DNA from: a virus
DNA: 64,000 nucleotides
UHGV virus genome: UHGV-0171999
Reading direction: 5' to 3' (one strand)
Of the stretch, positions 17,196 through 19,343 are shown piece by piece; within the stretch, counting starts at the first letter, position 1; the number at the start of each line of letters is the position of its first letter. Below the pieces are notes generated by a model. The model saw only the letters and a program-made list of their open reading frames with translations, had not been told where the DNA came from and did not search any database. The translations under genes were made by a program, and so were the position numbers.

Positions 17196-17684
17196 ATGAA
17201 TATATTTGAAATGTTACGTATAGATGAAGGTCTTAGACTTAAAATCTATAAAGACACAGAAGGCTATTACACCATTGGTATTGGTCATTTGCTTACCAAA
17301 AGTCCATCACTTAGTGTTGCCAAATCTGAATTAGATAAAGCTATTGGACGTAATTGCAATGGTGTAATTACAAAAGATGAGGCTGAAAAACTCTTTAATC
17401 AGGATGTTGATGCTGCTGTTCGCGGAATTCTGAGAAATGCTAAATTAAAACCAGTTTATGATTCTCTTGATGCTGTTCGGCGCTGTGCATTGATTAACAT
17501 GGTCTTCCAAATGGGGGAAACCGGCGTAGCGGGATTTACTAATTCTTTACGCATGCTTCAACAAAAGCGCTGGGATGAAGCAGCAGTAAATCTAGCCCAA
17601 TCTAAATGGTATCGTCAGACACCTAATCGCGCGAAACGCGTAATCTCAACATTTAAAACAGGAACTTGGAAAGCGTATATATGA
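17196..17684 (+). CDS. e: endolysin (T4-type lysozyme)
   Basis: [35 protein letters not shown]...; near-identical to recalled T4 lysozyme with a few substitutions. Confidence 0.95.
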
Positions 17685-17962
17685 AAACATATAGTGAATT
17701 TTTATCAGAATCTATTCTTAACGAAGCTACTGACACATTTGCAACTAAGCTAGGTGCAGCTTTGGTTGAAGCTGAAAGTCTATTAGCACGTATTTCTGAA
17801 CTTGCTAGTAAGATAGATACTCGCAAATTTGAGCGCACCAGTGATATCGTTAAGCTTGAAGCCTTGTTGCGTATGTGCGATAAACCGGAAGAAATCGCTA
17901 AAAACGGCTCGCTAATGAAACAACGTCTTGAAAAATATATTTCAGGCGCTTCAGAAAAATAG
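17681..17962 (+). CDS. internal-protein-like protein with capsid targeting sequence
   Basis: N-terminus [11 protein letters not shown] resembles the T4 IP capsid targeting sequence; ATGA overlap with e stop. Confidence 0.5.
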
Positions 17963-17963
17963 T

Positions 17964-17993
17964 GTTTACTTCCTCCAAGGACTTTGATACTAT
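17964..17993 (+). promoter_or_regulatory. early promoter upstream of denV
   Basis: GTTTACT, 17 bp, TGaTACTAT. Confidence 0.55.
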
Positions 17994-18020
17994 ACATTCA
18001 TCAACTACTTGGAGGAAATT

Positions 18021-18434
18021 ATGACTCGTATCAATTTAACACTTGTTTCTGAATTGACCGACCAACATCTTATGGCTGAGTATCGTGAATTACCACGCGT
18101 ATTTGGTGTAGTTCGTAAACATGTTCAAAACGGTAAACGTGTAAAGGATTTTAAAATCTCTCCAACATTTATCTTAGGCACAGGTCACGTAACATTCTTT
18201 TACGACAAACTCGAATTTTTACGTTTACGTCAAATCGAGCTAATCACTGAATGCTTGAAACGTGGTTTCAAAATCAAGGACACGACTGTCCAGGATATTT
18301 CCGACATCCCTGCCGAATTTCGTAATAATTATGTCCCGTCCGAAGCGTCCATTGCGATAAGTCAAGCACGCTTAGATGAAAAAATTGCTCAACGTCCTAC
18401 TTGGTACAAATACTATGGTAAATCAATCTACTAA
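18021..18434 (+). CDS. denV: endonuclease V, pyrimidine-dimer DNA glycosylase
   Basis: [12 protein letters not shown]...PTWYKYYGK; strong match to recalled T4 endo V; 138 aa from Met 18021. Confidence 0.9.
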
Positions 18435-18440
18435 GGAAAA

Positions 18441-18701
18441 ATGAAAATGTATCAAGAATTTATCATTGAAGCAGATGCCAAAGGTCCTAAATTTAAAGTT
18501 AAAGCTTTCATTGGTGATGCGGAAGACTTTGGCTCATTAAAACGTAATGGGTATTTTTTCTTAGGTGGCGATGGTAAAGAAATCAACACCTATGCAAAAC
18601 GTAGTGAAATTGCTTATGTTGTAGCAAGCCCTAAAGTAGATGTTGACGATATTGGATATGATTTTAACAACTTCGGAATTATTTCTGGCGGTAAAGCTTA
18701 A
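18441..18701 (+). CDS. internal protein (IPII-like) with capsid targeting sequence
   Basis: N-terminus MKMYQEFIIEA; 86 aa. Confidence 0.55.
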   Translation: MKMYQEFIIEADAKGPKFKVKAFIGDAEDFGSLKRNGYFFLGGDGKEINTYAKRSEIAYVVASPKVDVDDIGYDFNNFGIISGGKA

Positions 18702-18704
18702 ATT

Positions 18705-18734
18705 GTTTACGCTTAAGTATTAATATGGTATAAT
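18705..18734 (+). promoter_or_regulatory. early promoter
   Basis: GTTTACG, 17 bp, TGgTATAAT. Confidence 0.6.
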
Positions 18735-18764
18735 TACTCTATCAAAACAAACAAGGAAACAAAA

Positions 18765-19343
18765 ATGAAAACGTATAAAGAATTTATCGCCGAGGCCTTT
18801 GCAGGAAAAGCTCAAGGTATTAATAAGGACGAGTGGACTTATCGTGGTGGAAACGGCTTTGACCCTAAAACTGCTCCACTTGAACGATATCTAGCCACAA
18901 AAGCTTCTGATTTTAAAGCCTTCGCTTGGGAAGGACTTCGCTGGCGTAACGATCTAAATATTGAAGTTGACGGACTTAAATTTGCTCATATTGAAGATGT
19001 TGTTGCTAGTAACTTAGACGCAGCTTTTGTTAAAGCCGACAGTGACCTTCGTCGCTGGAATTTAAAACTGTTCTCTAAACAAAAAGGCCCGAAGTTTGTG
19101 CCTAAAGCAGGTAAATGGGTTATTGATAATAAATTAGCTAAGGCTGTCAACTACGCCGGTCTTGAATTTGCCAAGCATAAATCATCATGGAAAGGTCTTG
19201 ATGCAATGGCTTTCCGTAAAGAATTTGCCGATGTTATGGCTAAAGGCGGCTTTAAGGCAGAAATAGATACCTCTAAAGGTACGTTTAAAGACGCTAATGT
19301 TCAGTACGCTTACGCCGTTGCTAATGCGGCCCGTGGTAATTAA
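18765..19343 (+). CDS. internal protein (IPIII-like) with capsid targeting sequence
   Basis: N-terminus MKTYKEFIAEA; 192 aa, lysine/alanine rich. Confidence 0.6.
   Translation: MKTYKEFIAEAFAGKAQGINKDEWTYRGGNGFDPKTAPLERYLATKASDFKAFAWEGLRWRNDLNIEVDGLKFAHIEDVVASNLDAAFVKADSDLRRWNLKLFSKQKGPKFVPKAGKWVIDNKLAKAVNYAGLEFAKHKSSWKGLDAMAFRKEFADVMAKGGFKAEIDTSKGTFKDANVQYAYAVANAARGN

Follow-up and report, generated by a model that had tools for sequence, protein, structure and literature searches.

Organization of the locus

The DNA analysed here (the window) is a stretch of 64,000 nucleotides from the UHGV virus genome UHGV-0171999. The ORF map of the region revealed the order nudE, e, IPa, denV, IPb and IPc, followed by a vs.8-like ORF. 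The e gene (17196..17684, + strand) encodes a 162-aa lysozyme (PF00959) with 94% aa identity to T4 e, and its stop codon is overlapped by the start of IPa (17681..17962, +; 93 aa) through a 4-nt ATGA junction. The next genes are denV (18021..18434, +), encoding an endonuclease V of 137 aa (Pfam Pyr_excise), IPb (18441..18701, +; 86 aa) and IPc (18765..19343, +; 192 aa). T-even phages carry two known hypervariable internal-protein (IP) loci, one extending from e to vs.8 and the other from 57B to trna.4, and all three IP genes map to the former. The region therefore represents the e–vs.8 IP locus of a Tequatrovirus, with the allele e / IPa / denV / IPb / IPIII / vs.8.

The original prediction, that three ORFs with IP-type targeting starts (MKTYSEF, MKMYQEF and MKTYKEF) are arranged here as e, IP, denV, IP, IP, was borne out by the map, and the T4 order that it gave agrees with the T4 record, where transcription runs through e, ipIII, ipII, denV and vs.8 in turn. 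The homology to T4 stops at 17679, within the 3′ end of e, indicating that the terminal e codons belong to the variable region, and restarts at 19383 in vs.8, exactly at the site of the T4 denV stop codon. The breakpoints relative to T4 coincide exactly with gene borders. IPII is absent from the locus. The denV gene is a divergent allele, with 90% aa but only 79% nt identity to that of T4, while the flanks show 90–92% nt identity. The difference from T4 in order and content, as originally proposed, was thus confirmed, but one of the IPs is IPIII, and only two differ.

Three putative internal head proteins

The (L/I)-x-E site of the prohead protease gp21 lies at residues 8–10, or at residues 13–19 in leaders of the IPI/Ip5 type. 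This motif is found in IPa as LSE (8–10) and LNE (13–15), in IPb as IIE (8–10) and in IPc as IAE (8–10), and the LNE-A sequence of IPa is invariant among its homologues. The rules for the capsid targeting sequence (CTS) and for gp21 cleavage have been defined experimentally and summarised (PMC9026906); the CTS conforms to MKT(Y/F)xEF, in which an aromatic residue 4 and Phe7 are required for targeting (PMC9026906). All three IPs have Tyr4, Phe7, L/I8 and E10, in agreement with these rules.

As IPa and IPb match no Pfam or NCBIfam family, we considered that the CTS-like starts may have arisen by chance or through faulty annotation, in which case the ORFs would not be internal-protein genes. The strict motif MK.[YF].EF[LI].E, however, has four matches when the window is translated in all six frames, as against none in 200 shuffles; the matches are the IPa, IPb and IPc ORFs and gp61.1, for which a literature search found no paper on a link to capsid targeting. 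Each of the matches is located at an ATG that either follows a Shine-Dalgarno sequence or is coupled to the preceding stop codon. Furthermore, the ORFs match PHROGs of internal head proteins over their full length, and they are conserved over hundreds of phages with low dN/dS. The PHROG matches, the shuffle test and the dN/dS values effectively refute an artefactual origin, which we regard as extremely improbable.

IPa belongs to the Ip5 family. It shares 48% aa identity with T2 Ip5 over 84 residues (BLASTP, E 7e-22), and both proteins match phrog_3499 over the full length of this PHROG. A literature search by the names Ip5/Ip7 returned only papers on inositol phosphates. About 230 records contain IPa at 95% identity or more. 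Its pairwise dN/dS values are 0.03–0.13, and the pI of its mature form is about 6.3–8.1. IPb (MKMYQEFIIE...) matches phrog_2667, which is annotated "internal head protein", the label that RefSeq already gives to this family, and which is also the PHROG matched by T2 Ip7. Beyond the leader, no similarity between IPb and T2 Ip7 was detected by BLASTP, and hhalign with the CTS removed gave a probability of 0.7%, with thin profiles (Neff 1.3). IPb appears to be a separate small family, found in 217 phage records. Its pairwise dN/dS values are about 0.2 (0.18–0.24), and its predicted mature form has 76 aa and a pI of about 6.4.

The structures of IPa and IPb were modelled with AF2. Among 5.8 billion proteins, only 5 relatives of IPa and 11 of IPb were retrieved, all T-even-like, and the underlying alignments are therefore shallow. 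The IPa model is poor (pTM 0.35). IPb is predicted to adopt a small, compact mixed alpha/beta fold (pLDDT 78), which was good in one of the five models. A Foldseek search of the PDB with the IPb model gave no significant match (best E 0.3) and thus showed no structural resemblance to IPI* either. The PDB sequence search with IPa, IPb and IPc also gave no match.

IPc begins with MKTYKEFIAE and matches phrog_5341 (E 1.8e-117). In the comparison with known T-even IPs that had been suggested, it matched T4 IPIII, with 92% aa identity over 192 residues, the same length and the same type of CTS. Judged by sequence, IPc is IPIII, relocated to the other side of denV relative to T4.

The three proteins thus bear every hallmark by which packaged, gp21-processed internal proteins are recognised in sequence. 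Residues 4 and 7 of the leader would direct each IP into the prohead core, gp21 would cut at the (L/I)-x-E site, and the variable mature body would travel inside the head and enter the host together with the injected DNA. Our literature search found no report of virion proteomics for the IPa and IPb families.

Promoters, hairpins and cassette borders

Two exact matches to the T4 late-promoter box TATAAATA, at 17162 and 17175 (17162..17182, +), precede e. From the known T4 late-promoter consensus we infer that they function as late promoters, and they probably also drive IPa. Because TATAAATA occurs no more often than by chance across the window, this assignment is based on position and prior knowledge of T4 only. 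The spacer between IPa and denV (17963..18020, +) combines T4-early-promoter-like boxes, GTTTAC at 17964 and GATACT at 17986, with a stem-loop (17970–18017; 10 bp, −17.8 kcal/mol), the 3′ arm of which includes the Shine-Dalgarno sequence of denV. An early-type promoter, consisting of TTTACG, a 17-nt spacer, TATAAT and a TG extension, lies between IPb and IPIII (18705..18734, +), and the GC-rich hairpin AGGCCTATACTTAGGCCT (19346..19363, +) closes the IP block. At the e/IPa and denV/IPb junctions, recombination could draw on no shared sequence other than the CTS-coding 5′ end.

The second internal-protein locus

In the 57B–trna.4 locus, ipI (11289–11573) is present in a frameshifted form (11289..11603, +). 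The A-run at 11466–11469 is A4, whereas T4 has A5, and this 1-nt deletion destroys the frame past codon 60, so that the unaltered part comprises the CTS and the first 41 residues of the mature protein, with 44 out-of-frame residues after it. All close relatives checked have the extra base and an intact ipI, and the deletion is private to the present sequence. The frameshift claimed in the original prediction is therefore real in the sequence, but it may be a sequencing error, since the 1-nt change falls in a homopolymer and is not seen in close relatives.

Distribution and origin of the allele

The same layout was found in at least 74 phage records, as compared with 33 for that of T4; strains of T4 itself account for most of these 33. 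Between these two layouts T4 has the rarer arrangement, and the one described here is not unusual. About 20 combinations of IP genes and denV were observed in a set made up of 23 syntenic loci from IMG/VR, further phage records and the window itself. One locus (L008) that appeared to lack the denV cassette was rejected as such, as its denV has an internal deletion of about 297 bp.

The records with the present layout include EcNP1 and the IMG/VR locus L011. The IPa-denV-IPb-IPIII block of L011 is close to that of the window (92–99% aa; dS 0.13–0.22), whereas e has a dS of 1.0, and nudE and vs.7 are only 62–63% identical. This difference between the block and its surroundings suggests horizontal transfer of IPa-denV-IPb-IPIII. 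The arrangement arose by the shuffling of cassettes between phages, in which recombination would use short conserved border sequences, namely the CTS-coding 5′ ends and the spacers with early promoters and stem-loops.

Variable IP loci are textbook T-even biology. Variation of the IP locus has been known since 1994 (Repoila 1994, as reported in later papers), and more than 30 IP variants have been counted (Comeau 2007, as cited in PMC2839356). Promoter and stem-loop elements at IP borders were likewise described (Repoila 1994, as reported in later papers; Arbiol 2010), and "PeSL-like" IP-associated elements of this kind are known from IP loci (PMC2839356). The locus, its variability, the shuffling elements and the exact allele are already present in the literature or databases, and the locus raises no new question.

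Functional implications

Taken as a whole, the region is best explained as a common, cassette-shuffled allele of the Tequatrovirus IP locus, whose IPs would be packaged, cut by gp21, injected and active against host defences; we assign this reading a probability of roughly 0.85. T4 Ip1, Ip2 and Ip3 are inhibitors of type IV restriction, each directed at a GmrSD enzyme of its own (Silas 2025, PMC12373910). Ip3 acts against GmrSD-ECOR17 (PMC12373910), and IPIII is required on ECOR17 (PMC9391042). On that strain, host expression of IPIII lacking its CTS has been shown to rescue an IP-deleted phage. Among the three IPs of the locus, IPc alone is closely related to a characterised protein, T4 Ip3. 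By analogy with T4 IPIII, IPc most likely inhibits ECOR17-type GmrSD, although its specificity may have shifted, because 15 positions differ. We infer an anti-defence activity for the locus IPs in general; the most likely role of IPa and IPb is to be injected and to inhibit host defences other than those named above. On the other hand, ip4-10 did not reproducibly inhibit the 15 GmrSD groups against which they were assayed (Silas 2025), and GmrSD enzymes may therefore not be among the targets of Ip5-type proteins. Since each of T4 Ip1–3 hits a different GmrSD, a different IP set plausibly confers a different anti-restriction spectrum. The proposal of a different injected arsenal is thus plausible, but concerns only two IPs. 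With IPII absent and ipI frameshifted, if that change is real, we predict sensitivity of the phage to ECOR21-type and CT596-type GmrSD.

Another explanation would be that IPa and IPb are packaged but structural, acting in core or scaffold assembly or in DNA condensation rather than against defences. T4 IPIII mutants assemble heads more slowly and have a burst of about 40% of normal, and the T4 IPs reach high copy numbers (about 360) and show DNA binding under low-salt conditions (PMC9026906); the lack of reproducible anti-GmrSD activity of ip4-10 points in the same direction. However, the T4 IPs are basic (pI 9.0–9.65), whereas the near-neutral mature IPa and IPb are poorly suited as DNA counter-ions. 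Their presence also varies between closely related phages, which is unexpected for an assembly function, and anti-restriction targets are now defined for all three T4 IPs. We therefore consider a structural role unlikely.

Alternatively, IPb, and perhaps IPa, might be a functionless accessory gene drifting to loss, and the difference from T4 would then have no phenotype. IPb is split into two fragments in Lutter and into two tblastn pieces in UFV13, Pu-Krd-SF2 and G2133, and short IPb clusters (P0003, P0006–P0008) occur among the homologues. These frameshifted or truncated forms suggest that IPb is dispensable on at least some hosts, and the T4 IP genes are dispensable on laboratory hosts (PMC9026906). 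Both genes are nevertheless intact here and under purifying selection (dN/dS 0.03–0.24), and the near-identity of IPa across its records argues against decay, so that drift is quite improbable.

Returning to the anti-defence reading, one tentative extension, which we regard as possible though doubtful, is that IPa and IPb inhibit defences for which no IP has been matched, that their near-neutral charge marks a distinct functional class, and that IPa-denV-IPb-IPIII is a mobile counter-defence unit. If so, their targets could be GmrSD subtypes beyond the 15 tested groups, or non-restriction systems.

Each characterised IP counters a single subtype of type IV restriction enzyme, and the IP repertoire of a T-even phage therefore helps to determine its host range among wild E. 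coli strains. A known IP set is thus useful for host-range prediction and for the choice of therapy phages. The prediction here is that IPIII-type protection is present, whereas IPII-type and possibly IPI-type protection are absent. The two uncharacterised families, IPa and IPb, merit screening.

Comparison with known systems

The T4 ipIII-ipII locus occupies the same slot between e and vs.8, with orthologous denV, e, nudE and vs.8. In T4, IPIII lies upstream of denV, while here it is downstream; IPII is absent, two other IPs are present, and IPa is translationally coupled to e. Much closer are EcNP1, Nami, phiE142, Lutter, GRNsp7 and Bas45/PaulHMueller, which share e-IPa-denV-IPb-IPIII-vs.8 at 93–97% nt identity. 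Bas45 differs by an additional Ip10 between IPb and IPIII, Av-05 (L012) by an additional 109-aa CTS ORF past IPIII, and Lutter by the frameshift in its own IPb. In these deposited Tequatrovirus loci the three ORFs already carry RefSeq annotations as internal proteins of the head or virion; unlike the window, these phages have an intact ipI where checked.

T2 Ip5 is a full-length homologue of IPa, with a cleavage motif at residues 13–15 in both proteins. The Ip5 gene, however, resides in the 57B–trna.4 (ipI) locus of T2, PP01, AR1 and RB9, whereas IPa adjoins e. IPa also has 9 additional C-terminal residues and a leader of the MKTY rather than the MKTF type, and Ip5 has a mature pI of 9.2. T4 IPI*, a GmrSD inhibitor with an NMR structure, resembles IPb in its 76-aa mature size and in the alpha/beta fold predicted for IPb, which would take the same delivery route; the two nevertheless show no sequence similarity (BLASTP E 5.9), and the pI of IPI* is 9.0.

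The border elements are like the PeSL elements in that GTTTAC-N16-GATACT boxes with overlapping stem-loops flank ipI and sit between IPa and denV, with a promoter between IPb and IPIII and a hairpin at the end of the block. Unlike these borders, the e/IPa (4-nt overlap) and denV/IPb (6-nt gap) junctions have no such element.

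Gene order and identity of the internal proteins

The window is part of a Tequatrovirus (T4-like) genome, its plus strand corresponding to the T4 minus strand, and the nearest deposited genomes, among them EcNP1, Nami, BGP and UFV13, are ~96% identical to it over 25 kb. The locus reads, all on the plus strand, nudE (NUDIX protein, 16704–17159), lysozyme e (17196–17684), IPa (17681–17962, 93 aa), denV (pyrimidine-dimer glycosylase, 18021–18434), IPb (18441–18701, 86 aa), IPc (18765–19343, 192 aa, starting MKTYKEFIAE) and a vs.8-like ORF (19473–20060), where IPa, IPb and IPc denote the three internal-protein (IP) ORFs. 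A Pfam scan confirmed nudE, e and denV and returned no family for any of the three IPs. In transcriptional order the T4 reference record gives nudE, e, ipIII, ipII, denV, vs.8, as the original prediction had stated, and the order here is indeed unlike it (e-IPa-denV-IPb-IPc versus e-ipIII-ipII-denV). At 19409–19520 (+), the N-terminal 33 codons of the T4-annotated vs.8 (MRDSRQP...) are out of frame with the remainder; in most relatives the gene is annotated from an internal MRTFLTGPY start (~180 aa). This may reflect an N-terminal over-extension in the T4 annotation or an indel in the window phage.

The content of the locus was also predicted to be distinct, and alignment with the known T-even IPs upholds this for two of the three proteins, whereas the third is an ordinary IPIII. 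IPc is 92% identical in amino acids to T4 IPIII over its full length, matches phrog_5341 (E 2e-117) and is the IPIII orthologue. The likeness of IPa to T4 IPII and IPIII is confined to the leader; its full-length homologue is T2 Ip5 (48% aa, E 7e-22), and both match phrog_3499. Since Ip5 lies between 57B and trna.4 in T2 and PP01, that is, in the other IP locus, while IPa lies beside e, one family occupies both IP loci. IPb matches phrog_2667 (annotated "internal head protein"), as does T2 Ip7, but neither BLASTP nor a leader-stripped profile–profile comparison supported homology of the mature parts, and we therefore treat IPb as a small family of its own. An IPII orthologue is absent.

Leader, processing and expression

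The presence of three ORFs with IP-type leaders was confirmed. Translated in all six frames, the 64-kb window has four matches to the strict pattern MK.[YF].EF[LI].E, against none in 200 shuffles, and three of the four are IPa, IPb and IPc. Targeting by the IPIII leader depends on residues 4 and 7 and its processing on residues 8 and 10, with L/I-x-E as the motif of the prohead protease gp21 (PMC9026906). All three window proteins carry these experimentally important residues. Among IPa homologues, LSE (residues 8–10) is lost in some while LNE-A (13–16) is invariant, and cleavage of IPa after Glu15 is therefore likely, resembling the longer leaders of the IPI/Ip5 type. The predicted mature products are 78–83 aa with pI 6.3–8.1 for IPa, 76 aa with pI 6.4 for IPb and 182 aa with pI 9.6 for the window IPIII; those of T4 IPI*, IPII and IPIII have pI 9.0–9.65. 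Pairwise dN/dS against relatives is 0.03–0.13 for IPa, 0.18–0.24 for IPb and 0.05–0.10 for IPIII; all three are constrained coding genes.

The remaining match to the pattern is gp61.1 (63351–63515, +, 54 aa), between 61.2 and the primase gene 61. It starts MKTYKEFIKE (MKTFKEFIKE in T4) and combines a full leader resembling the capsid targeting sequence (CTS) with an I-K-E site of the gp21 type and a low-complexity Lys/Glu-rich tail. The gene lies outside both IP loci, to which IP genes are said to be confined (PMC2839356); our literature search found no paper tying gp61.1 to capsid targeting.

Two TATAAATA boxes lie upstream of e, to which IPa is coupled through an ATGA overlap, and IPa is therefore probably made late, together with lysozyme. 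The denV-IPb pair and IPIII each lie downstream of a predicted early-type promoter.

Prevalence and mosaic structure of the arrangement

The window arrangement is not unusual. At least 74 phage records contain, in a single place, a match to 80% or more of the 2.4-kb segment 17100–19500, many with 100% coverage and 95–97% identity. EcNP1 and Lutter share the gene order, and RefSeq labels their ORFs internal head or virion proteins. By the same criterion, just 33 records match the T4 ipIII-ipII-denV segment; 28 of these are at least 99% identical to it and, among the matches listed, are T4 laboratory strains and RB55/RB59. IPa occurs at 95% identity or more in ~230 records, and IPb at 90% or more in ~150.

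In a survey of IMG/VR lysozyme loci, 23 retained the nudE-e...vs.8 synteny. Counted along with the window and fetched phage records, they display ~20 different IP/denV combinations. The IPs are drawn from IPa, IPb, IPII, IPIII, Ip4, Ip7-like, Ip10 and other CTS-bearing ORFs, and denV may be present, missing or shortened by an internal deletion. Examples are T2 (e-ip4-vs.8), PP01 (e-ip10-ipIV-vs.8), ime09 (e-IPa-denV-Ip4-vs.8) and Bas45 (e-IPa-denV-IPb-Ip10-IPIII-vs.8). IPb is split by frameshift into two short ORFs in Lutter (L002 2850–3105), UFV13, Pu-Krd-SF2 and G2133, phages that are otherwise near-identical, and has thus been lost repeatedly. Four surveyed loci of other T4-like phages hold more CTS-bearing ORFs of 96–132 aa between e and vs.8 (L012, which is Av-05, 7178–7507; L015 5482–5880; L020 5488–5835; L022 5482–5772). 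These matched none of IPI–III, Ip4, Ip5, Ip7, Ip10, IPa and IPb, and appear to be additional IP families.

Between T4 and the window, homology breaks fall exactly on gene borders. Homology stops at 17679, 11 nt short of the T4 e stop codon, restarts at denV (17985–18421) with just 79% nucleotide identity against 90–92% in the flanking genes, again at ipIII (18753–19360, 90%), and for vs.8 at 19383, the base following the T4 denV stop codon. denV itself circulates as at least three alleles: in some relatives whose e and IPa are identical, it shares just 78% amino acid identity with the window denV. The denV of L008 has an internal deletion of ~297 bp. In L011, a phiE142-like locus, the IPa-denV-IPb-IPIII block is 92–99% identical to the window in amino acids (dS 0.13–0.22), whereas the flanks are divergent (e dS 1.0; nudE and vs.7 just 62–63% identical), which argues that the block moved recently between lineages.

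T4-early-promoter boxes (GTTTAC-N16-GATACT) with overlapping stem-loops lie on both sides of ipI and in the IPa/denV spacer, a TTTACG-N17-TATAAT promoter in the IPb/IPIII spacer and a GC-rich hairpin 3' of IPIII. These cassette-border elements correspond to the "PeSL-like" elements of Repoila et al., which were proposed to mediate shuffling by Arbiol et al. 2010 (PMC2839356), where more than 30 IP variants are cited as known. They are absent from the e/IPa (ATGA overlap) and denV/IPb (6-nt gap) junctions, where the sole repeated sequence is the conserved CTS-coding 5' ends.

The ipI gene and the neighboring tRNA region

The reported frameshift in ipI (11289–11573, +; ~98% DNA identity to T4) is present: the A-run at 11466–11469 is A4 versus A5 in T4, so that the reading frame is lost beyond codon 60 and the ORF runs on to 11603. 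The 1-nt deletion is private to the window sequence and lies within a homopolymer, and all nearest relatives show one extra base in the alignment and an annotated, intact 288-nt ipI. IPI may truly have been lost, or the deletion may have arisen in sequencing.

Nearby, the trna.3 homologue (11824–12216, +) is just 56% identical to T4 in amino acids, compared with 100% for trna.4 and 97% for trna.2, and looks like another replaced cassette. The tRNA cluster (12607–13011, +) has four tRNAs (Gln, Leu, Gly, Arg) versus eight in T4. No segB lies between them; a segB-like GIY-YIG fragment occurs at 38749–39027 (53% aa over 93 residues).

Likely function and relation to known loci

In T4, ~360 copies of each IP enter the prohead core via the leader, are cleaved by gp21 and are injected with the DNA (PMC9026906). 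Ip1, Ip2 and Ip3 inhibit GmrSD-CT596, GmrSD-ECOR21 and GmrSD-ECOR17, respectively, with no cross-protection, while ip4–10 had no reproducible effect across 15 GmrSD groups (PMC12373910). Growth on ECOR17 needs IPIII, whose cytoplasmic action persists without the leader (PMC9391042). Homology predicts that the window IPIII protects against enzymes of the ECOR17 type and that the phage lacks Ip2-type protection. AlphaFold gave a usable model for IPb alone (pLDDT 78, pTM 0.68), a small alpha/beta fold with no significant structural neighbor in the PDB, IPI* included; the IPa model is helical and of low confidence. A PDB sequence search with IPa, IPb and IPIII matched no solved structure.

The observed features of the locus were thus all confirmed. 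The proposal of a different injected anti-defense arsenal points in the right direction, in that the IP set differs from that of T4 and IPII is absent, although one IP is an ordinary IPIII and the locus a common allele. The exact arrangement has already been deposited and annotated many times; as one of the common alleles at a locus long recognized as hypervariable, it falls entirely within the descriptions of Repoila 1994, Comeau 2007, Arbiol 2010 and Silas 2025.
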